A DNA stretch of 64,000 nt from Candidatus Eiseniibacteriota bacterium (GTDB lineage Bacteria > Eisenbacteria > RBG-16-71-46 > JABDJR01). Where the stretch lies: NCBI GenBank assembly GCA_963783375.1, contig CAWANH010000028.1:1056001-1120000 (forward strand), written 5' to 3'. Under the pieces are notes generated by a model, which searched no databases, was not told the origin of the DNA, and saw only the letters and a list, made by a program, of their open reading frames with translations. Positions 246 to 57,578 of the stretch are shown here, one piece after another; within the stretch, counting starts at the first letter, position 1; the number at the start of each line of letters is the position of its first letter. Position numbers and translations under genes: made by a program.

Positions 246-1364
246 ATGAACCAACCCGACCATTTCCTAGACCACCTCGTCCAGCTCGAACACCGGCTCG
301 ACGAGATCAACCAGGGCCTCGTGCGCCCCGAGGTGCTCGGCAGCCCCTCCGAACTCAAGCGGTTGGGGAAGGAGCGGGCCGAGGTCGAGGAGATCGTAAT
401 CAAGCTCCGCGAGTATCGCTCGCTTCATGACCGCCTGACCGGGGCGAAGGACATCCTCGAGACCGGCGACGATCCCGACATGGCCGAGCTGGCCGAATCG
501 GAGATCGCCGAGTGCGAGCCGCGTATCGAGGCGCTCCGCGGCGAGATCAACGAGATCCTCTTCCCCGCCGACCCCAACGACAACAAGGATGTGATCGTGG
601 AGGTCCGGGCGGGTACGGGGGGCGATGAGGCCGCGCTGTTCGCCGGCGAGATCTTCCGCATGTACTCGCGGTACGCCGAGCGTCAGGGTTGGAAGCTCGA
701 GATCCTGGGCTCCAGCGAGACCGGGATCGGCGGCTTGAAGGAAGTGATCTTCAACCTCTCCGGAAGCAAGGTGTACGGGCGCATGAAGTACGAGAGCGGG
801 GTGCACCGGGTCCAGCGCGTGCCGGCGACCGAAGCCAGCGGGCGCATCCACACCTCCGCGGCCACGGTGGCCGTTCTCCCCGAGGCCGAGGATGTGGATG
901 TGGAGGTGAACGAGAAGGACCTCCGGGTGGACGTCTACCGGTCGAGCGGTCCCGGAGGCCAGGGGGTGAACACCACCGACTCGGCCGTCCGCATCACCCA
1001 CGTTCCCACCGGGCTGGTGGTGACCTGTCAGGACGAGCGCTCCCAGATCAAGAACAAGGCCAAGGCCATGAAGATCCTCCGGTCGCGGCTCCTCGACGCC
1101 AGGATCCGCGAGCAGGAGGAGGCCATGCGCACCAGCCGGCGGAGCCAGGTTTCGACCGGGGACCGGAGCGCCAAGATCCGCACCTACAATTTCCCCCAGG
1201 GCCGGGTCACCGATCATCGCATCAACTTCACTCTCCACCGTCTGCACGAGGTGCTGGAGGGGGACCTCGACGAGCTCACCCAGGCCCTGATCGACGCCGC
1301 CGCCGGAGAGCGGCTGGAGGAGGCGGAGGCGGGGGAGCGTCATGCCCCGGTTCCCCGGAGCTGA
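246..1364 (+). CDS. prfA: Peptide chain release factor 1
   Basis: GGQ motif (SSGPGGQGVNTTDSAVR), RF1-specific PAT tripeptide (RVPATE), EVRAGTGGDEA, IRTYNFPQGRVTDHRI. Confidence 0.98.
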   Translation: MNQPDHFLDHLVQLEHRLDEINQGLVRPEVLGSPSELKRLGKERAEVEEIVIKLREYRSLHDRLTGAKDILETGDDPDMAELAESEIAECEPRIEALRGEINEILFPADPNDNKDVIVEVRAGTGGDEAALFAGEIFRMYSRYAERQGWKLEILGSSETGIGGLKEVIFNLSGSKVYGRMKYESGVHRVQRVPATEASGRIHTSAATVAVLPEAEDVDVEVNEKDLRVDVYRSSGPGGQGVNTTDSAVRITHVPTGLVVTCQDERSQIKNKAKAMKILRSRLLDARIREQEEAMRTSRRSQVSTGDRSAKIRTYNFPQGRVTDHRINFTLHRLHEVLEGDLDELTQALIDAAAGERLEEAEAGERHAPVPRS

Positions 1365-2247
1365 CGGCCGGCTCCCTCCGACCCGGAGCCTCCGGGAATG
1401 GCGCCGGGCGGCCCGGGGAATGCTGAGCGCCGCCGGCATCGAGTCCGCCGCCGCCGAGGCCGATCTCATCGCCCGCCACGTCCTCGGGCTCTCCCGGGTG
1501 GAGCTCACCCTGGCCGCCGACCGCGGACTCTCGCCCGGCCAGAAACGCCGGCTGTCCCGCATCCTTCACCGTCGCCGCCGTCGCGTTCCTTTACAGTATC
1601 TTTTGGGGGAAGTAGACTTCTGGGGTTTGAGCCTCCGGGTCACCCCCCGGGTCCTCATTCCCAGGCCCGAGACGGAGGGATTGGTGGATCGGGTGCTGTC
1701 CTTCCTGGGCCCGGACCCCGAGGCGGTGGTGATGGACGTGGGGACGGGAAGCGGAGCGATCGCCCTCGCCCTGGCCGCCTCGCGGCCGCGCATCACCATC
1801 TTGGCCTCGGACGTTTCCGCCGCCGCCATCCGGGTGGCGCGGGGGAACGCCGGTCGACTGGGATTTTCGGGGCGGATTCGCTTCGCGGTCGGAGACCTCA
1901 CCGAGCCTTTCGAGGGAAAGGAACCGGAGGAGTCGCTTCGGGTACTGGTCAGCAACCCCCCGTACGTTTCCACCCGGGATCGGGGGCGGCTTTCCCCCGA
2001 GGTGGCCGAGTTCGAGCCCGCCCTCGCCCTGTTCAGCGGGGACGACGGGCTCGGGATCATCCGACGGCTCGTGCCGGCGGCGGCGCGGAGTCTGCCCGCC
2101 GGCGCCATGCTCGCCCTGGAGATCGGCGACGATCAGGGGGAGCGGGTCCGGCGGCTCATCGAGGCGTCCCGCGACTGGCGGGACGTTCGGATCGACAGGG
2201 ATCTGGCCGGGCGGGACCGGTATGCGCTGGCGGTCCGGACCGGCTGA
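1342..2247 (+). CDS. prmC: Release factor glutamine methyltransferase (HemK)
   Basis: PLQYLLG, VLIPRPETE, DVGTGSGAIA and SNPPY motifs; directly after prfA. Confidence 0.96.
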   Translation: MPRFPGADGRLPPTRSLREWRRAARGMLSAAGIESAAAEADLIARHVLGLSRVELTLAADRGLSPGQKRRLSRILHRRRRRVPLQYLLGEVDFWGLSLRVTPRVLIPRPETEGLVDRVLSFLGPDPEAVVMDVGTGSGAIALALAASRPRITILASDVSAAAIRVARGNAGRLGFSGRIRFAVGDLTEPFEGKEPEESLRVLVSNPPYVSTRDRGRLSPEVAEFEPALALFSGDDGLGIIRRLVPAAARSLPAGAMLALEIGDDQGERVRRLIEASRDWRDVRIDRDLAGRDRYALAVRTG

Positions 2248-2280
2248 GTCGAAAATGAATCCGGCAAGGAGACCGATCGT

Positions 2281-4035
2281 ATGCGCCGCCTGCCCGCCCG
2301 ATTCGCAGTCGTCCTGTTCCTCGGGGTACTCCTCGCCGCCGGTTGCGGGAAGAGCAAGACCACCCGGCCCGGGAACCAGCCTCCGGTCGTGACCCTGACC
2401 GAGTTCCCCGCCGCGGGTAGCACCGTCACCCTGAAGGCCATGTTCCGCTGGTCCGGCACCGACGCCGACGGTTCGGTGGCCGCCTACGAATACGCCCTCG
2501 ACTCCGAGACCGACCTCACCACCACCGCCGACACCACGGTCACCTTCACCTTCACCAAGGACGACGGCACCGAGTCCAACCCCCAGGATCACGTGTTCCG
2601 GGTTCGGGCGGTGGACGACCGGGACCTGCCCGGGGTTTTCGCCACCCTGGCCTTCCGGGTGGCCTTTCCCAACGACCGGCCGACGGTGGCGTTCAGCCGC
2701 ATTCCGAACACCGGCGGCTACGTGGGTCCCCAGGTCACGATTTCTTGGCAGGGAGAGGACGCCGACGGCGTCGTCGATCACTACGAGTACGTGCTCGACG
2801 ACACCCTGGCCGCCTGGACCTCCATCGCCGATACCACGGTGACCCTGGACTTCTCGACCGGAGTGCCGGCCCCCCGGGGGAGGCCGCTGTTTTCTCCGCG
2901 GGGCGTGTCGGCCCCCCTGCACCGGACCCACGACTACGTGTTCTACCTCAGGGCGCGGGACGACGAGGGCAAGGCCTCGAACGTGGTCCATACCCCCTTC
3001 ACCTCCGGTCCGGCCAACGTCCCCCCGACCGTCGACTTCGACACCCTTCCCACCGGGACGGTGACCGGGAGCGCCACCTGGGTCTGGCACGGCAGCGACA
3101 CCGACGGGGAACTCACCCGCTTCGAGTGGGCGATCGACAAGGCCTCGGATGCCGACTGGAACGTGGTGGGGATCAGCACCGTGTCCCTCACCCGCACCTT
3201 CACCCGGGCGGACGGCACCGCCGAGAACCCCCGGGACCACTTCTTCTATCTGCGGGCCCGGGACGACAACGGCGCCTACAGCGACGTCCTGAGCCGGAAG
3301 TTCACCGTGGGAGTTCCCAACCAGCCTCCGACGGTCAAGCTCACCCAGGCCCCCCAGGAGGGGGGAACCGTGAGCTTCCGAAGCACCATCAAGTGGTCGG
3401 GGACCGACGACGAGGGGGTCGCATCCTACGAGTACGCGGTGGACGGGGCCTCGAGCTGGACCCCGGTGCCCGCCACCGTGACCAGCCGGGATTTCCTGTT
3501 CAGCTGCACCGACTCGGTCACGGTGTACCCCAATCCCAACCCTACCGCGCCCCAGGCCCAGGCCTTCGGCTTCCACCGGTTTGCCATCCGCGCCCTGGAC
3601 GCGCTCGGGGCGGTCTCGCCGACGGTCTCGGTATCGTTCCGCACCATCACCATCACTCCCTACACCACGATCCTCGTTCCCGACCCCGGAGACGGGATGG
3701 TGGCGGGAAGCGTGAGCTTGGACCTGCGCTGGATGGGAGTCGACGTGGATCGCAGCGAGCCGGGGAACCCGTCGAACCGGCTGGCCCGGAACTTCGACAT
3801 CCTGTGGGGCGAGGTTCCCCCCGACTCCACCTATGCCGACGGCGCGGCGGAGGTGGCGGCGGCCCTGGCCCGGGGCGCCCGGTGGCAGACCCTGGCCGAC
3901 AGCGCGGTCGAGACCACGCTCGGCCTCGAATCGGGAAAACAGTACGTGGTGGCGATACGGGCCCGTGACGTGACCAACGCCGTCGAGCCCTACTTCAATT
4001 ACGGAAGGAACGTGCTCCGGGTCACCGTGCCCTAG
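2281..4035 (+). CDS. Lipoprotein with ~5 tandem beta-sandwich (Ig/FN3-like) repeats
   Basis: Signal peptide with lipobox LAAGC; repeats of PPxV...WsGxDxDGxVxxYEYxxD...HxFxxRAxDD. Confidence 0.8.
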   Translation: MRRLPARFAVVLFLGVLLAAGCGKSKTTRPGNQPPVVTLTEFPAAGSTVTLKAMFRWSGTDADGSVAAYEYALDSETDLTTTADTTVTFTFTKDDGTESNPQDHVFRVRAVDDRDLPGVFATLAFRVAFPNDRPTVAFSRIPNTGGYVGPQVTISWQGEDADGVVDHYEYVLDDTLAAWTSIADTTVTLDFSTGVPAPRGRPLFSPRGVSAPLHRTHDYVFYLRARDDEGKASNVVHTPFTSGPANVPPTVDFDTLPTGTVTGSATWVWHGSDTDGELTRFEWAIDKASDADWNVVGISTVSLTRTFTRADGTAENPRDHFFYLRARDDNGAYSDVLSRKFTVGVPNQPPTVKLTQAPQEGGTVSFRSTIKWSGTDDEGVASYEYAVDGASSWTPVPATVTSRDFLFSCTDSVTVYPNPNPTAPQAQAFGFHRFAIRALDALGAVSPTVSVSFRTITITPYTTILVPDPGDGMVAGSVSLDLRWMGVDVDRSEPGNPSNRLARNFDILWGEVPPDSTYADGAAEVAAALARGARWQTLADSAVETTLGLESGKQYVVAIRARDVTNAVEPYFNYGRNVLRVTVP

Positions 4036-12795: not shown

Positions 12796-13536
12796 ATGGA
12801 ACTCAAGGAGAAGGTGGCCATCGTTTCGGGGGGAAGCGGGGACCTGGGTAGCGCCATCTGCATGCGCCTGGCCAAGGCCGGGGCGAAGGTCGCCCTGACC
12901 TACCGGGCGGACCAGAAAGAGGCGACCGAGGTCGTGGACGCGATCGAGGCCATCTCCGGCACCGCGGTGGCCGAGGCGGTGGATATCACCGACTACGACA
13001 ACGTCTCCGAGTTCGTGAAGCGGATCGTGGCCAAGTGGGGCCGGCTGGACATCCTGGTGAACGCGGTGGGGGCCAAGGACCCGGCCACCCTGTTCGAGAT
13101 GACTCCCGAGCAGTTCGACCATGTACTCGACGTCAACCTCAGGGGGTACTTCAACTTCATCCGGGCGGCGTCCACGGTCTTCCGGGAGCAGAACGGCGGG
13201 AAGGTGGTGAACGTGGCTTCCCTCCAGGCCACCCAGGGCTCCTCGGCCCTGAACGACGTGGCGGCCAAGATGGGGGTGATCGGTCTCAGCCTGGCCGCGG
13301 CCCGGGAGCTGGGGCCCTACGACGTGAACGTCAACGCGGTGGCCCCGGGCATGGTGGAGACCGCCGCGCTCAAGGGCACCCCGGCGGAAGACGTCGAGAA
13401 AGCCATATCCCGCAGCGTCTTAGGGCGCCTGGCCAAGCCGGAGGAGGTGGCCGACGTGGTCATTTTCCTCTGCTCGGCCAAGGCCCGTCACATCACCGGC
13501 GAGGTCATCCGGGTGGATGGGGGCCAGCACCTCTAG
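12796..13536 (+). CDS. FabG-like short-chain dehydrogenase/reductase with atypical catalytic motif
   Basis: SGGSGDLG Rossmann motif, VNAVAPGMVET, ITGEVIRVDGG; the YxxxK position reads DVAAK. Confidence 0.85.
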   Translation: MELKEKVAIVSGGSGDLGSAICMRLAKAGAKVALTYRADQKEATEVVDAIEAISGTAVAEAVDITDYDNVSEFVKRIVAKWGRLDILVNAVGAKDPATLFEMTPEQFDHVLDVNLRGYFNFIRAASTVFREQNGGKVVNVASLQATQGSSALNDVAAKMGVIGLSLAAARELGPYDVNVNAVAPGMVETAALKGTPAEDVEKAISRSVLGRLAKPEEVADVVIFLCSAKARHITGEVIRVDGGQHL

Positions 13537-13830
13537 CCGTCCCTGAACCGCGGATCTTGGGGCGGAGGGACCGGCCGACCCCCCACATCCGGCCCCTTCG
13601 CAGGGCGCTCCCCCTAACTCCCTTGTGCGTTTTCTCTTGTCAGAGTCACGGGATATCGTGTACTCGTTTTCCGGTGCAGGCTTCCCGCGTACCCCGGAGA
13701 GTCCCTTTCCGGGTCACGGGAGAGCTAGGACAGATGCCTGATCGGGAGGGGTATCGTACCTCTCCTGTGAGGACCAGCCGCGCCGTCCCTGCGTACGATG
13801 CGGCACTTACGATCAAGGAGGGTAGCTCAT

Positions 13831-14353
13831 ATGAAGAAGATCCTCTTCTTCACGATCGCTTTGTGCTCTGGTGGCCGGACCGCCATGGCTGGCCACGACA
13901 TGACCGGCCGGCTCGGCCTCGGCTTCACTACTCCGACTTCCCGGTCGGCGTGCGCTACTGGGTCTGCCCGAAGGTCGGGGTGGACGGTCGGTATCGGGTA
14001 CAGACCCGAGAACGACGGCACGTGACCAAGACTTATGCATCGACGTCGGCGTGCCGATCGTGCTCATGGACGATGCGGACCGGGTGAACTTCCTGGTTCG
14101 CCCCGGGCTCAACTGTAGTCGACCATGGAACCGCGGCGCAGGGTACGAGCTCGGCGACGAACCTGATGACCGGCAGCCCTGGAGTTCGAGGTCAATCGTC
14201 ACCGACGACTTCACGGTGAGCGCGGCCCACGGGTTCGCGTTCATGAGCGCCAGACTCGGGCGCCCCCGGGTTCCAAGCTCGACCTCGGACTACGGCTTCT
14301 TCGGTAACAACTGGACCAACTTCGGGTTCCACTACTACCTGAAGAAGAAGTAA
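13831..14353 (+). pseudogene. Small outer-membrane beta-barrel protein, split by several frameshifts
   Basis: AAGGAGG RBS then MKKILFF; segments RLGLGFT / FPVGVRYWVCPKVG / IDVGVPIVL...VNFLVRPGL / NFGFHYYLKKK lie in different frames. Confidence 0.65.
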
Positions 14354-14388
14354 GCGACCCCAAGCCGATGGTTTACGGATCCAATGGA

Positions 14389-14425
14389 GGCCCCGCCGCG
14401 CCCGCGGCGGGGCCGGGTCCTTTTT
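14389..14425 (+). terminator. Intrinsic terminator-like hairpin after the first OMP gene
   Basis: GGCCCCGCCGCG/CGCGGCGGGGCC stem followed shortly by TTTTT. Confidence 0.5.
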
Positions 14426-14437
14426 CCCGGAATCTGT

Positions 14438-14976
14438 CGTGCTCTGCCCTGGCCATCCTCCTGCTGGCCCTGGCCGCGGTCGTCCCGGTCCGGCCGGTCG
14501 ACGGCGGGCGAAGACCCCGCGCCTACCGGGCTTCGGCCGCAACGTCTCCCGCCGCCTCGGCCTGGGGATGATCTCCCGCGAAGCCCCGATCGGGCGTGCG
14601 CTACCTCTTCGACCCCCGCCTGGGGATGGAACTGGGAGCGGGCTTCAGCCACCGGAAGGAGCAGGGAACGACGGTGATCATGGACGGCGGGCTGCTTCTG
14701 GCCCTGGCCCCCGGCGACCGGCTGAACTTCTACCTACGTCCGGGGGTCCGGTTCCGCAGCGTGGATGCGTCGGACGAAGGGGCCACCACCACGGTGTTCT
14801 TCACCGCCGCGCTCGCCGTCGAGGTGTTCGTGACCCGGGATTTCTCGATCACCGCCGATCAGAGCCTGGAGATGGGTTTCGTGAGCCCCCCCAGCGGTCC
14901 GGATCACACCGACTTCCAGACCCAGGGCGTCCCCTGGACCCGGCTCGGGTTCTTCTACTACCTGGGCGCTCCCTGA
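14438..14976 (+). pseudogene. Second outer-membrane beta-barrel paralog, frameshifted (start approximate)
   Basis: Signal-like ALAILLLALAAVVP; RLGLGMISREAPIG then +1 shift to VRYLFDPRLG...LNFYLRPGV...RLGFFYYLGAP, colinear with the upstream paralog. Confidence 0.65.
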
Positions 14977-14996
14977 CCCGTCGGGTGATCCCCCCC

Positions 14997-15692
14997 TCAA
15001 TCCCCCCGCTTCACCGTATTCGGAGGTTCCATTCGACCCAGGGTGCGGAGGTTGTGCGCCACCCGGCGGGCCAGGAGCCCGGTCATCCCCAGGGCTGCCG
15101 CGATCCCCACGATGTCGAACACGGTCATCCCGATCCCGAAGAGATCGAAGGGGAGCCCCCGGGCGTAGAGGACGGTGAGGTTCAGGGCGATGAGGAGGAT
15201 CCGAACCTCGGTGGGTCCCACCCCCCCGTAGCCGTAGCGGAACTCGCCGAAGATATAGGTTTCGAGGTAGACGTTGATGGAGAGCACCAGGTAGGCGGTC
15301 ACGATGGCCAGCGAGGTGCCGAGGAGCATGAAGGGCGAGAGCCCCATCCCGAGCCCGATCGCGAAGGTGGAGTAGGCGTCGGAGATGTGGTCCAGGTAGA
15401 AGCCGTACCGGGGACGCTCGATGTGGCGCACCCGGGCCAAGGTTCCGTCCAGGCTGTCCGCGAACCAGTGGATCACGATGGCCGCGTTGGCCACCCAGAG
15501 CCAGCTCGGGCTTCGGTTGGAGAGAATGTAGGCGACGCCGATCACCGAGGCCGCGACCAGCCCGAGCACGGTGAGATGATCCGGAAGCACCGGGGCGGGA
15601 AGACGGGCGGCCAGCCGGGGGAGAGCCCACTTCTCGAACCGGGTCAACACGAACTGCGCGGTGCGACGGTGTTTGACGTCTTCATCGGCCAT
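14997..15692 (-). CDS. CDP-alcohol phosphatidyltransferase family protein
   Basis: Signature DSLDGTLAR-x8-GFYLDHISD; multiple TM helices. Confidence 0.9.
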   Translation of the reverse strand: MADEDVKHRRTAQFVLTRFEKWALPRLAARLPAPVLPDHLTVLGLVAASVIGVAYILSNRSPSWLWVANAAIVIHWFADSLDGTLARVRHIERPRYGFYLDHISDAYSTFAIGLGMGLSPFMLLGTSLAIVTAYLVLSINVYLETYIFGEFRYGYGGVGPTEVRILLIALNLTVLYARGLPFDLFGIGMTVFDIVGIAAALGMTGLLARRVAHNLRTLGRMEPPNTVKRGD

Positions 15693-15759: not shown

Positions 15760-16386
15760 TCACCGCAGGCTGAACACGAACGGGATCAGCACCCGGGTCC
15801 TGACCGGCCGATGGCGCTGGAGGCCCGGGGTGAAGAGCCATTGTCTCGCCGCGTCCAGCGCCGCCCGCTCCAGGGCGGGGATGGTGTCGGAGCTCTTGAT
15901 CCGCGCGGCCAGGACCCGGCCGGTCGTGCCGACCACCACCTCGACGGTGACCGTTCCCTCGGCCCGGGCCTCGCGGGCGATGTCCGGGTAGCCCGGCTGG
16001 ACCCGCTTCAGGATGGCCGGCTCCCGGTCCAGGGCCTCGAACACCTGATTGTCGCCCGGGGGGGGCGCGGCCACCGGGTTGGAGAAGATGTCCGGGTTGA
16101 AGATGGGGATGGTGTCGCGGGGGTCGGCGCTATCGGTGACGTCGATCTCGGAGGGGAGGAGGGGACGCTTCACATCCTCCGGTGGCTCCTGGATCTTGAT
16201 CGGGTCGGGGACCTCAATCAGCTTGAACGGCTCGTTCTCCGGAAGCCGGTAGGGGGTGATCCGCATCGCCGGCACGGCCAGGAAGAGAGCCACGTGCAGG
16301 ACGACGCCGACGGCGAGGGTGGTCTCGAGGGTCCGGGGGTAGCGGGACTTGAAGGCGAACTGGGCGGTCAGGGCGCGATCGGTCAT
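15760..16386 (-). CDS. tonB: Energy transducer TonB family protein
   Basis: N-terminal TM with His (GVVLHVALF), Pro-rich linker, TonB_C YPDIAREARAEGTVTV...AARQWLFTPG...IPFVFSL. Confidence 0.88.
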   Translation of the reverse strand: MTDRALTAQFAFKSRYPRTLETTLAVGVVLHVALFLAVPAMRITPYRLPENEPFKLIEVPDPIKIQEPPEDVKRPLLPSEIDVTDSADPRDTIPIFNPDIFSNPVAAPPPGDNQVFEALDREPAILKRVQPGYPDIAREARAEGTVTVEVVVGTTGRVLAARIKSSDTIPALERAALDAARQWLFTPGLQRHRPVRTRVLIPFVFSLR

Positions 16387-16449
16387 GGCAACGGTCCTCC
16401 CCACTGGGTGGTCGGTCGCTCACAACCCCGGCGCCGCAGAATGAGCCTC

Positions 16450-16482
16450 AAAAATTTGGGGCACCCGGCTTTCGGGTGCCCC
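16450..16482 (-). terminator. Intrinsic terminator upstream of tonB
   Basis: Perfect 10-bp stem GGGGCACCCG/CGGGTGCCCC (16458-16482), followed on the minus strand by AAAUUUUU. Confidence 0.65.
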
Positions 16483-16896
16483 TACGGCGACACAAGAGCG
16501 GGCTTGTATACTCTTGCGACGCGCGATCCCCCCCTCAGGGATCAGGATGGTTCCCTGCGTCCGCATGTTCGTCCGAGAACGAACCAGACCTTGATGGGAG
16601 GCATCCCCAGGCCGAGCGGGCGCTTGCTTTGCAATACCCTACGGACGCTTCGTGGTCGCAGGGAACCAGTCGTTGTGGCCGTTGAACCCGCCCCGGGGCG
16701 GGGCCTCGACCTGAATTCCGGTTGCCGTGATGCCGATCCACCCCCGCCTCGGGTTGAGGGCCGCGTGGGTGGCTCGCCGGTGGCTGCCTCTTCACCGAAC
16801 GAGCCACCCTGCCGGGGTTGGAGAGTAGCATTCGCGGCTTTTTGGTGCTTCGAAGCTGCATCCCTCTTCCGAGAGAGTCTCGCTGCTTCGATCACC
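16450..16896 (-). ncRNA. Candidate structured non-coding RNA or long leader (~440 nt), family not recognised
   Basis: Succession of stems between a sigma54 motif and a terminator; several stem mismatches become G-U pairs only on the minus strand; no credible ORF. Confidence 0.6.
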
Positions 16897-16902
16897 TGTA
16901 TA

Positions 16903-16919
16903 CGCAATCCGTGTGCCAG
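16903..16919 (-). promoter_or_regulatory. Sigma54 (-24/-12) promoter
   Basis: Minus strand CTGGCAC-ACGGA-TTGCG with exact GG-N10-GC spacing; AT-rich tract upstream at ~16948-16972. Confidence 0.75.
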
Positions 16920-17204
16920 ACGATCGCACCGGCGGTGATCGTCTTCCATGTTATTGGAGTATAATAGCTTAGACCCTGAGGGGCCGGGCCGGTCCCGGTG
17001 GACCGGACGGCGAGGCGGCGACGGCCGATGGGTACCAAAAACCCATGCTCGAAAGTCGATGTCCGGTAACCCGCCATTCCGCAAGCAATTCCCGGTGGAT
17101 ACCTCCTACCCGGAGAATCGACCCGAAGAACCGGTCCTTTCCAGATTGGAAAGCCGTTGGTCTTGGCCACGTTAACCGCAGTAGGATCAACCCGAGGTTC
17201 TTTG

Positions 17205-17876
17205 ATGGTGGACTGGAACGAACTCTTCGACGATCCGCAGAACGTTCTGGACGTACCCGAGGCCCTGGCCGTCGAGTTGGCCGAGACGCTCTCCCCCCGG
17301 GCGCGCGTGCTCGATCTGGGCTGCGGCGCGGGGCGTCATCTGGCGCTCCTGGCCTCGCGGGAGCTCAAGACCGTCGGCATCGACACCGCTCCCAACGGCC
17401 TGGCCCGGAGCCGGGAGCGTCTGGACGCCCGCGGCCTCGCCGCCCACCTGGTGCGGGGGGACTTTCGCCGACCGCTCCCCTTTCGGGACGGCCTCTTCGA
17501 CGCCGTGCTCACGGTGAAGACCGTGAACCACGGCATGCCCGACGAGGCGGCCCGGGCCTTTCACGAAGCGGAACGGGTCCTCAGGCCGGGAGGGCGGCTG
17601 GTGGGGATCGTGATCTCGGCCTCGGATGCCCGCTTCGGGGACGGGGAGGAGGTGGCGGAGCGGACCTTCGTGCACCATAGCCCGCCCGAAGCCGGGGTGC
17701 CTCACCACTACTTCACCGAGGCCGAGCTGCGGGAGCTCATGGCCGGGTTCTCCTTCGTGGACCTCTCCTTGACCGAGCGCTACGTGAGCCCGGCCGAACC
17801 GATCTTCGGGCGGTACCGGTTCCGGCCGGGGGTGGCGCCCTGGCTCCGGCACTGGCAGATCCGGGCGGTGCTTTGA
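17205..17876 (+). CDS. Class I SAM-dependent methyltransferase
   Basis: VLDLGCGAGRH, LPFRDGLFDAV, RVLRPGGRL. Confidence 0.9.
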   Translation: MVDWNELFDDPQNVLDVPEALAVELAETLSPRARVLDLGCGAGRHLALLASRELKTVGIDTAPNGLARSRERLDARGLAAHLVRGDFRRPLPFRDGLFDAVLTVKTVNHGMPDEAARAFHEAERVLRPGGRLVGIVISASDARFGDGEEVAERTFVHHSPPEAGVPHHYFTEAELRELMAGFSFVDLSLTERYVSPAEPIFGRYRFRPGVAPWLRHWQIRAVL

Positions 17877-17979
17877 GGATCCGCCGGAGTCTCTCCGGCG
17901 GCCCGGGCCCGAAATGGATGACCCCGGCTCAATCGGTGGGAGGGCAAAGGGGGAGCAAACCGTCCCGCTCCAGTACGGA

Positions 17980-18020
17980 TGTTTCAAATTGACACGCACA
18001 TACTGTTTCACACTGAAACA
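17980..18020. promoter_or_regulatory. Tandem palindromic upstream activator-like sites
   Basis: TGTTTCA-AAT-TGACACG (17980-17996) and perfect TGTTTCA-CAC-TGAAACA (18004-18020), ~105-145 nt upstream of a sigma54 motif. Confidence 0.65.
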
Positions 18021-18124
18021 TGTCCTTGATTCGTGAGCTGTTTCGATGTGGATCGGGCGGGCTTGGGTCATGTATGCTATTGTGTAATAACACTTTAAAT
18101 GCATCGTGGGTTGCCTGGAGCATG

Positions 18125-18141
18125 TTGGCACGTTGCCTGCT
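18125..18141 (+). promoter_or_regulatory. Sigma54 promoter of the hsp20-dnaK operon
   Basis: TTGGCACG-TTGC-CTGCT with GG-N10-GC spacing; AT-rich stretch at ~18070-18100. Confidence 0.75.
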
Positions 18142-18260
18142 TATTATGTTTTCGCAAGGGAACGGAGACGGTTGGACGGACCGGCCTTCCGAACCCAGGA
18201 TTTGAACACGATCATCGCCGGGCCGGTACCCGGGCCCGCAAGACCACGGAGGACAAGAAG

Positions 18261-18698
18261 ATGGCACTTGTACGCTGGAGACCCATGAACGACCTTATGA
18301 GCATTCAGGACGAGATCAACCGGGCTTTCGACGAGGCTTGGCGCGGGCGGTCCCATCCGGCGGCGGCCGGAATGTGGTGGCCCGCGGTGGATCTCACCGA
18401 GAACAAGAACGAGTTCAAGGTGGTGGCCGAGCTTCCGGGGATGAAGCGGGAGGACGTGAAGATCGCCTTGACCGAGAACGTCCTCACCGTCCGCGGAGAG
18501 AAGCGGGCCAGGAAGGAAGAGGAGAACGAGAGCTGGCACCAGGTCGAGCGGAGCTACGGCTCCTTCGAACGGAGCTTCCAGCTCACCTGCCCGGTCGAGC
18601 CGGGCAAGGTGAAGGCCCGGTTCGAGGACGGCGTCCTGACCGTGACCTTGCCCAAGTCCGAGGCGTCGAAGCCTCGGGAGATCGACATCGAGAGCTGA
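18261..18698 (+). CDS. Small heat-shock protein Hsp20/alpha-crystallin family
   Basis: WPAVDLTE...AELPG...ERSYGSFERSFQL...ARFEDGVLTVTLPK; GGAGG RBS. Confidence 0.96.
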   Translation: MALVRWRPMNDLMSIQDEINRAFDEAWRGRSHPAAAGMWWPAVDLTENKNEFKVVAELPGMKREDVKIALTENVLTVRGEKRARKEEENESWHQVERSYGSFERSFQLTCPVEPGKVKARFEDGVLTVTLPKSEASKPREIDIES

Positions 18699-18815
18699 GT
18701 CGAGTGAATGAGGAGGGGGTCCGGAGAGACCCCCTCCCCGACACCGCCGCGGGCCGCATCCGGCATCGGCCGGAAGCGCGCCCGCCGTGCGTTACCAAAG
18801 GCAAAGGTGATTTGA

Positions 18816-20733
<1,918 letters not shown>

Positions 20734-24542: not shown

Positions 24543-25499
24543 ATGAAGCGAACTCACTCCCCGTCGGGGGAGGCCCGACACCCGATCAAGCTCGCCGCCC
24601 GCAGGACCGGTCTATCTCCCGACGTTATAAGGGTTTGGGAGAAGAGATACGGAGCGGTGGTTCCGCGCCGGAACGCTCGGGGACAGCGGGCCTATTCCGA
24701 CGAGGACGTGGAGCGGCTCCGCCTCCTGGCCCAGGTGACCGCCGCGGGCCGGCGGATCGGGGATGTGGCCCGGCTCTCCGCGGAGGAACTCGCAACCCTG
24801 GCCCGTGAAGACGAGACCGCGGCCCGCCTCCTCCCCGCCCGCCGGGGAAGCCTGGGTGATTCCGCCGGCGCCTATCTCCGCCAGGCCCTGGCTGCGGTGA
24901 ACGATCTGGACGGACACGGTCTCGATCAGGCGATCACCGGCGCGTCCATCGCCTTGAGCCCCCAGGTGCTTCGCCGCGAGGTGCTCTTCCCGTTCCTCCA
25001 TGAGATCGGTGACCGGTGGCAGGCGGGCAGCCTTCGCGTCGTACACGAGCACCTGGCCTCGGCCCTGGTGCGCTCGTTTCTCGGATCGATCCGAAACGGC
25101 CACAACCTCCCCGATTCCGCCCCCCACATACTGGTCACCACCCCCGCCGGCCAGCTCCACGAACTGGGCGCGCTCATGGCGGCGGCGGGAGCGAGCGAGG
25201 TGGGGTGGCGGGCGACCTACCTGGGGCCCAACCTTCCCGCCGAAGAGATCGCCGCCGCCGTGATTCAGAAGCGGGCGAAGGCGGTGGGGCTGAGCATCGT
25301 CTATCCCATGGACGACCCCCGCCTTCACGACGAACTCCGACGGCTTCACCGCCATCTCGACGGTGGAGTAATTCTCTTCGCGGGGGGAGACGGCGCGCCC
25401 GCCTACGCCGGCGTGCTGGAGGAGATTTACGCGATCCGCCTGGATTCCGTGGCGGCGCTCCAGGAGGAGCTCAAGTCCCTGAACCGAGCCGCCGGCTGA
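24543..25499 (+). CDS. MerR-family regulator with cobalamin-binding domain (CarH/LitR-like)
   Basis: MerR HTH IRVWEKRYG..P.R...QRAYS; W-x9-EH (WQAGSLRVVHEH); B12 motif QLHELG; YLGPNLP. Confidence 0.9.
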   Translation: MKRTHSPSGEARHPIKLAARRTGLSPDVIRVWEKRYGAVVPRRNARGQRAYSDEDVERLRLLAQVTAAGRRIGDVARLSAEELATLAREDETAARLLPARRGSLGDSAGAYLRQALAAVNDLDGHGLDQAITGASIALSPQVLRREVLFPFLHEIGDRWQAGSLRVVHEHLASALVRSFLGSIRNGHNLPDSAPHILVTTPAGQLHELGALMAAAGASEVGWRATYLGPNLPAEEIAAAVIQKRAKAVGLSIVYPMDDPRLHDELRRLHRHLDGGVILFAGGDGAPAYAGVLEEIYAIRLDSVAALQEELKSLNRAAG

Positions 25500-57501: not shown

Positions 57502-57578
57502 GGGGTCGTAGTTCAGCTGGTTAGAACGCCGGCCTGTCACGCCGGAGGTCGCGAGTTCGAATCTCGTCGGCCCCGCCA
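57502..57578 (+). tRNA. tRNA-Asp (GTC)
   Basis: Acceptor GGGGTCG/CGGCCCC, anticodon arm CCGGC-CTGTCAC-GCCGG, T loop TTCGAAT, encoded CCA. Confidence 0.97.

Follow-up and report, generated by a model that had tools for sequence, protein, structure and literature searches.

The minus strand at positions 16892-16450 of the window, by which we mean the whole 64-kb stretch of DNA analysed, is, judged from its sequence, a stand-alone, conserved and structured non-coding RNA gene; its predicted switch is a sigma-54 promoter that has enhancer sites of its own. The RNA family is real and uncatalogued, with members in at least 35 genomes from eight of the 18 families of Ca. Eisenbacteria, and it belongs with the sigma-54-driven regulatory RNAs, its function being unproven. 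Of the possible functions we favour, at a probability of roughly 0.45, a trans-acting, Hfq-independent regulator that would base-pair with its targets through an invariant C-rich loop.

A predicted sigma-54 gene unit

The original prediction had placed a -24/-12 motif at 16903-16919, and the box was confirmed there with the exact consensus (Table 1). TGGCAC-N5-TTGC has this single match in the window and 13 in the whole genome. The TGGCA and TGC blocks were invariant and the spacer variable in all 20 aligned homologues, and a sigma-54-type box was present in 42 of the 42 tabulated homologues. The genome itself encodes rpoN and about 17 activator-type motifs; no activator-type gene was found among the identified neighbours of the RNA, the nearest lying more than 200 kb away. 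By standard sigma-54 geometry, +1 is presumably near 16892. The terminator that had been proposed just upstream of tonB was recovered as a hairpin at 16458-16482 with a U-tract, and the tonB ATG at 16386 lies 64 nt beyond that tract. At the sequence level we found a box with exact spacing, rpoN, activators and an upstream enhancer, the components of a sigma-54 unit.

The proposal of a novel structured RNA stood up to these analyses. Rfam 15 models gave nothing near threshold in the window, in nine order-level loci or in seven distant loci, and the RNA is kept from promoter to terminator. It was undescribed in a full-text literature search, with most subscription journals and the motif catalogues in supplements falling outside that search's scope. 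The minus strand at 16896-16440 folded at -226 kcal/mol (z -5.97), with none of 100 shuffles as stable, and the plus strand of the region gave a z of -4.28; across 42 homologues, z ranged from -0.9 to -8.6. The RNA is single-copy in its own genome.

Upstream of the promoter lie two copies of an enhancer-like motif. Both sites were found in 15 of 20 order-level homologues and at least one in 19 of 20, against a background of 0.014 per 200 nt; ten of the 22 distant homologues, all from families other than f14, carried a looser form of the motif between -170 and -186. We infer from this pattern that the sites bind a sigma-54 activator and that one conserved activator serves the RNA. By analogy with known sigma-54 promoters, the AT-rich stretch between enhancer and promoter is possibly a DNA-bending (IHF-type) site. 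A second sigma-54-like box, with one mismatch, was seen at 18126-18140 on the plus strand, ahead of hsp20, and because of this box the enhancer sites could act in both directions. Outside the window, at about 1011140-1011860 of the same contig (G000:C28, minus strand), a gene encoding a 188-aa protein whose N-terminus resembles a signal peptide is preceded by another sigma-54 box, with GTATCCA sites at both -81 and -61, and may share the RNA's activator. Most genomes of families f15 and f16 carry two rpoN genes.

A small share of the region is represented in five metatranscriptome runs, of which four were compared at the contig level. Four contigs with at least 95% identity, one per run, fell inside the RNA at 16619-16873, and three of them stop some 20 nt short of the predicted start, at 16871-16873. 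No contig of at least 95% identity covered tonB or the methyltransferase gene; uncovered parts of the RNA and its neighbours prove nothing. These contigs give a weak hint of expression, because they show neither strand nor level.

Structure and covariation

All stems that had been proposed were present, namely those at 16844-16896, 16767-16809 (within 16760-16838), 16548-16668, 16487-16522 and 16526-16542. The outer 4 bp of the first, which would precede the transcript with +1 near 16892, were not conserved. The hairpin at 16687-16704 and the alternative GCGTCCG/CGGACGC pairing are likewise present in the window copy; both fall in the variable part of the alignment.

The order-level alignment comprised 20 sequences, one of them partial, with two metagenome duplicates left out. 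Covariation in homologues, suggested at the outset as a check, was found: of 76 pairs, 28 show changes on both sides, and pairing holds in 95.3% of cells, in a structure that was derived from the same alignment and with counts that are inflated by kinship. None of 500 shuffles was as good, and slid controls reached 39-49%. Changes on both sides affected five of six pairs in P1 and 12 of 16 in P3 of domain 1, and seven of 11 pairs in P1/P2 when 28 order-level and distant homologues were considered. In domain 2, five of 11 pairs of the closing stem changed on both sides, as did seven of 20 pairs of the domain in families f8, f14 and f15. The pairing of hairpins C, D and E is without covariation support from the alignment because these hairpins never vary in it. 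In distant families the second domain has conserved internal loops and covaries, features that would suit a protein-binding or tertiary module better than a carrier of seeds.

Table 1. Features of the RNA gene, its control region and the downstream neighbour, with positions in the window.
Feature	Position	Strand	Evidence or remark
Distal enhancer-like site, G[GA]TA-N4-GTA[TC]CCA	17096..17110	-	184 bp before the -24 box
Proximal enhancer-like site, same motif	17029..17043	-	117 bp before the -24 box
AT-rich stretch between enhancer and promoter	16948..16971	-	at about -40 to -55 in many homologues
Sigma-54 -24/-12 promoter box	16904..16918	-	exact consensus TGGCAC-N5-TTGC
Non-coding RNA gene, ~443 nt	16450..16892	-	start predicted from promoter geometry
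5' hairpin, order-specific	16850..16891	-	alignment and covariation; missing from distant homologues
Domain 1, three-way junction (P1, short P2, long P3), phylum-wide core	16760..16838	-	
Loop A on the weak P2 stem	16811..16825	-	CCAACCCC at 16821-16814
P3 hairpin with loop B (AGGCAGC, 16782-16790)	16767..16809	-	alignment and covariation
Variable linker, lineage-specific hairpins	16669..16759	-	large indels in alignment
Domain 2, long-range stem around hairpin C (GGGA-UGCC-UCCC, 16596-16607)	16548..16668	-	
Hairpin D, G-rich loop, order-specific	16526..16542	-	
Hairpin E, loop AAGCCC, order-specific	16487..16522	-	alignment and covariation
Intrinsic terminator	16450..16482	-	hairpin 16458-16482, U-tract to 16450; 5/10 pairs with both-side changes
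Candidate target site in tonB leader, GCCGGGG-NN-G[GT]GAG type	16419..16432	-	complementary to loop A
TonB-family gene, downstream neighbour, not part of the RNA	15760..16386	-	TonB_C, E 6e-20

Loop A is a candidate seed or protein-binding site. Its CCAACCCC was invariant in all aligned homologues, partly by selection, because a pattern holding loop A was used to find the distant ones. It was predicted to be unpaired, at 0.6 or more, in 36 of 42 homologues (against 0.27-0.43 over the whole RNA); the value for the window's own copy was only 0.16, i.e. mostly paired. Loop B is not retained in f8, f14 and most of f15.

Distribution in the phylum

A DNA search of 61 genomes for order-level homologues showed the unit to be kept in eight of nine same-order relatives, the missing case being a genome of 75% completeness. 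Among these relatives, DNA similarity spans the unit from promoter to terminator and goes no further. A metagenome motif scan gave 13 loci, all 13 with the sigma-54 box 310-375 nt ahead of the core, and a model of the promoter and 5' domain gave weak matches in three further families that were real when read. With the 13-nt pattern CCAACCCCRGCAG and a third model, distant forms were found in f12 (5/5), f14 (5/5), f15 (10/10), f8 (1/1) and f6 (2/2), and additionally in f5 (1/1) and in one more genome each of f14 and f15. These distant forms, of about 245-370 nt with one longer form in f5, represent six further families. The promoter box and loop A persist in them, but their stems have been exchanged for others and their neighbour genes differ. 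Common to all forms are the promoter box, a three-way junction with a short stem showing CCAACCCC, and then a second domain.

The RNA was not found in f9, f10, f16, f17 and f18, a result that is not to be read as absence because the third model misses f1 and f2 (0/8). We found rpoN in 99 of 101 genomes, these five families included. A model of the 3' part of the RNA gave no match in 142 genomes outside the order, and another phylum gave none in 301 genomes with a promoter-plus-loop pattern that fits short spacing only. Several sets of candidates were rejected on reading. Weak model matches in f7, f9, f10, f13 and f16 were without the core, with one locus of f9 (L240) being doubtful and not excluded. 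The pattern CCAACCCCRGCAG matched in 99 of 206 genomes, and 18 of 30 loci read, which had no sigma-54 box, were chance matches, as were all 20 further loci from f10, f11, f13, f17 and f18. An exact 19-mer scan of species genomes returned 12 loci, of which eight were order-level homologues and four were chance matches in coding DNA. Viral contigs held more than 120 matches to a 14-mer, and there was no homologue among the 80 that were read.

Genomic neighbourhood

At the order level, tonB follows the RNA in seven of 20 loci, and 15 of the 20 have hsp20 (with dnaK) upstream in divergent orientation; in the window, a methyltransferase gene, hsp20 and dnaK occupy 17205-20648 in this orientation. 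Distant forms adjoin uvrA, genes for arginine decarboxylase, HU, a protein kinase and signal peptidase, and others. Since the neighbour genes vary across loci, the RNA is a stand-alone gene and not a leader; the suggestion of a stand-alone RNA is the one that held, as the RNA is kept whichever gene adjoins it.

All that remains of the link to tonB is a possible local target in the tonB leader. This leader and loop A form a two-block complement of -25.5 kcal/mol, ranking 8 of 3741 genome leaders, for which gene starts were taken from a simple gene caller and contain errors. The site is kept in five of the seven tonB-linked loci, varying at two bases opposite the AA of the loop; the five carriers are close kin, and the other two loci are without it. 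For a tonB paralogue at seven loci, pairing with loop A was never better than -15.3 kcal/mol.

Other genes of the window were noted. Tandem short genes for beta-barrel-like outer-membrane proteins lie at 13500-15000, one of about 126 aa (14596-14976) having no Pfam match, and paralogues of these genes adjoin the RNA in relatives. A regulator with MerR and B12-binding domains, which by domain content we take to be CarH/LitR-like, is encoded at 24543-25499. The window's only tRNA gene, for tRNA-Asp, is at 57502-57578.

Target search and proposed mechanism

Hfq was found in none of 101 genomes of the phylum, no LSm was found, and KhpA/KhpB-type proteins are present. As expected of a C-rich-loop sRNA, the RNA combines an Hfq-less host with a conserved loop that is predicted to be exposed, this exposure being low in the window copy. 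Complements of loop A near start codons were found in seven of 3745 genes, compared with eight, nine and four in control windows, and the loop ranked 10th of 21 among permutations; there was no enrichment and no regulon. The leaders of rpoN and 18 activator-type genes ranked 311-3695 of 3741, so that pairing at activator mRNA starts is unsupported. Among the tRNAs there was one 7-nt match to loop A. The 23S rRNA was rejected as a target, as its 9-nt complement was no better than those obtained with shuffled loops. Sites of the target pattern were listed in five relatives.

On the favoured reading, one activator would bind the two upstream sites, the sigma-54 promoter would fire and the RNA would be made. 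Loop A would then dock as a seed on G-rich stretches of target mRNAs (GGGGUUGG-type sites), and the pairing would open the weak P2 stem and extend into P2, an extension that the tonB-leader site would permit. Translation of the target would thereby be blocked or altered. The order-specific hairpins C, D and E might serve as added contact points, as in RNAIII. Against a seed role, the tonB site does not account for the phylum-wide invariant AA.

Alternative readings

It is possible, though we lean against it, that the RNA is a protein-binding decoy or scaffold. One conserved protein, e.g. a KH-domain protein or an as yet uncharacterized regulator, would recognise both the loop-A-bearing junction and the internal loops of domain 2, and would be titrated or activated upon induction of the RNA by sigma-54. 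Such binding would suit the 8-13 nt that are strictly invariant, including the AA, without a matching target set, as well as a domain 2 that is conserved and covarying in distant families; KhpA/B-type proteins are at hand in the hosts, and sigma-54-driven decoy RNAs exist, e.g. CrcZ. However, the motif occurs once per RNA, in contrast to the repeats of known sponges, and no co-distributed protein emerged among Hfq, CsrA, LSm and KhpA/B, with CsrA absent from f1 (0/6) and f12 (0/5) yet present in families without an RNA match. An unlikely reading places the function in an internal tertiary fold, compact or switchable, where loop B would pair with UGCCUC of hairpin C and loop A with CUGGG/UCGGG of domain 2. 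GGC[AG]G was present in P3 of 24 of 24 homologues with UGCCUCC, compared with four of 18 others (about four lineages, not independent), and most homologues have CUGGG/UCGGG at a distance of 156-210 nt beyond loop A, with local partners that differ by family; kissing loops are reported for ROOL, GOLLD and OLE (PMC12286853). But CUGGG covaries with partners inside domain 2 in f8, f14 and f15 (CAG/CUG to GAG/CUC in 3 of 17), the register with loop A is broken by insertions in four loci (L004, L029, L037 and L041), UGCCUCC is stem-paired in three f15 carriers, and invariant loops can yield no covariation. Rather doubtful, finally, is an ancient phylum-level class of sigma-54-induced, two-domain RNAs under one conserved enhancer and activator, in which the junction-mounted CCAACCCC loop would engage one conserved partner (protein or RNA) without Hfq or CsrA, and which would have grown from about 245 to 443 nt by loop-bearing modules, perhaps in mutual contact; this would be a new functional class and not an ordinary seed-pairing sRNA.

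The remaining alternatives have far less in their favour. A cis-acting leader or attenuator of tonB, one of the two roles originally suggested, would agree with the same-strand tonB start 64 nt after the terminator and with the complementary site in its leader. This role is largely refuted and very improbable, as tonB follows only seven of 20 order-level loci and none of the distant ones examined, which often have a convergent gene next, the same RNA is found with or without tonB downstream, and the alignment held no conserved alternative pairing for the terminator. Nor did we observe a constant position before functionally related genes, by which a riboswitch or attenuator would be recognized. 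A CsrA/Rsm or Hfq/Crc sponge, a form of the protein sponge that was also suggested, fares worst. The GGA motifs noted in the RNA are there (nine in the window copy), and CrcZ resembles the RNA of 16892-16450 in its sigma-54 promoter and size. A CsrA/Rsm sponge is contradicted by the genome, which is without CsrA, as are f1 (0/6) and f12 (0/5), while CsrA occurs in 84 of 101 genomes, including families where the RNA was not found. Since Hfq is missing, and CsrA too in the RNA's own family and in f12, both the CsrA and the Hfq/Crc version are removed, barring highly divergent forms of these proteins; LSm is missing as well, the alignment shows no A-rich repeats, GGA loops are not kept in distant forms, and the phylum-wide loop A contains no GGA. 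We give hardly more credence to a small protein or a divergent housekeeping RNA (tmRNA, RNase P, SRP, 6S). The claim that the region has no credible ORF needs amending to the extent that a 108-codon ORF (16861-16535) overlaps the RNA. This ORF is not conserved: its length differs among homologues, and only 34 of 246 indels relative to the window copy, counted in kin and not independent, are multiples of three. The genome (97% complete) gave no 6S match to RF00013, which would leave room for a housekeeping role. The branched multi-domain fold, however, does not resemble the rod of 6S; the genome has its tmRNA, RNase P RNA and large SRP RNA elsewhere, and the RNA was not found in over half of the phylum's families.

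Comparison with known RNAs and variant forms

CrcZ/CrcY of Pseudomonas are stand-alone RNAs of several hundred bases driven by sigma-54 and an activator; CrcZ is weakly structured, has A-rich repeats and binds Hfq/Crc, whereas the Eisenbacteria RNA is tightly folded and occurs in hosts without Hfq. RNAIII, which additionally encodes a peptide, differs from it in phylum and promoter type, and we obtained no sequence or model match between them. RNAIII of Staphylococcus aureus is described as a long, multi-hairpin, signalling-induced RNA that does not require Hfq and uses conserved C-rich loops for loop-loop contacts (PMC2837412), and sX13 of Xanthomonas as a strongly structured, Hfq-independent trans RNA whose CCCC-type loops act on G-rich mRNA motifs of non-conserved position (PMC3771888). 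The base-pairing regulator that we favour, with its invariant C-rich loop on a weak stem in an Hfq-less host, would resemble both (PMC3771888, PMC2837412). sX13 is 115 nt long with three C-rich hairpins (PMC3771888), whereas the Eisenbacteria RNA measures 245-443 nt, has a single universal C-rich loop, set in a three-way junction, and adds a second domain and a sigma-54 promoter; Rfam shows no similarity between the two.

In control logic the RNA is like Pxr of Myxococcus, for which three reports give a sigma-54 promoter with an upstream enhancer region, an Hfq-less host, a conserved loop needed for function and direct targets that are unproven (PMC5684412, PMC10217877, PMC11928866). The Pxr model RF01812 (109 positions) had no match in the genome at E 1, and pxr sits behind its activator gene, unlike the Eisenbacteria RNA with more than 200 kb to the nearest activator-type genes. 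Like ROOL, GOLLD, OLE and raiA (PMC12286853), it is a large conserved structured RNA in which loop-loop contacts are possible; it differs from them in being smaller, modular, sigma-54-driven and without an Rfam match, and its tertiary contacts are hypothetical.

Outside cultured phyla, few structured RNA families are known that are as large and as deeply conserved, and the hosts of this one are uncultured bacteria. The RNA points to regulation by signal-controlled RNA in a phylum that lacks Hfq, adds a new candidate activator-binding motif common across the phylum, and comes as a complete testable unit of enhancer motif, sigma-54 promoter, invariant loop and terminator. The size series of 245, 270-300, 345-370 and 400-443 nt offers a natural model for the gain of modules by a regulatory RNA.

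Some individual forms deviate from the common plan. Of the forms L184 (G012) and L177 (G020), the f5 form carries some 150 additional bases separating promoter from core, and the G020 form displays a second CCAACCCC in a subsequent hairpin. Three f15 forms (L231, L228 and L198) have extra 3' segments ahead of the terminator, and in their domain 2 CAG/CUG is replaced by GAG/CUC, a compensatory change. One genome, G058, carries two diverged copies of the RNA at different loci (L233 and L244), the sole duplicate seen.
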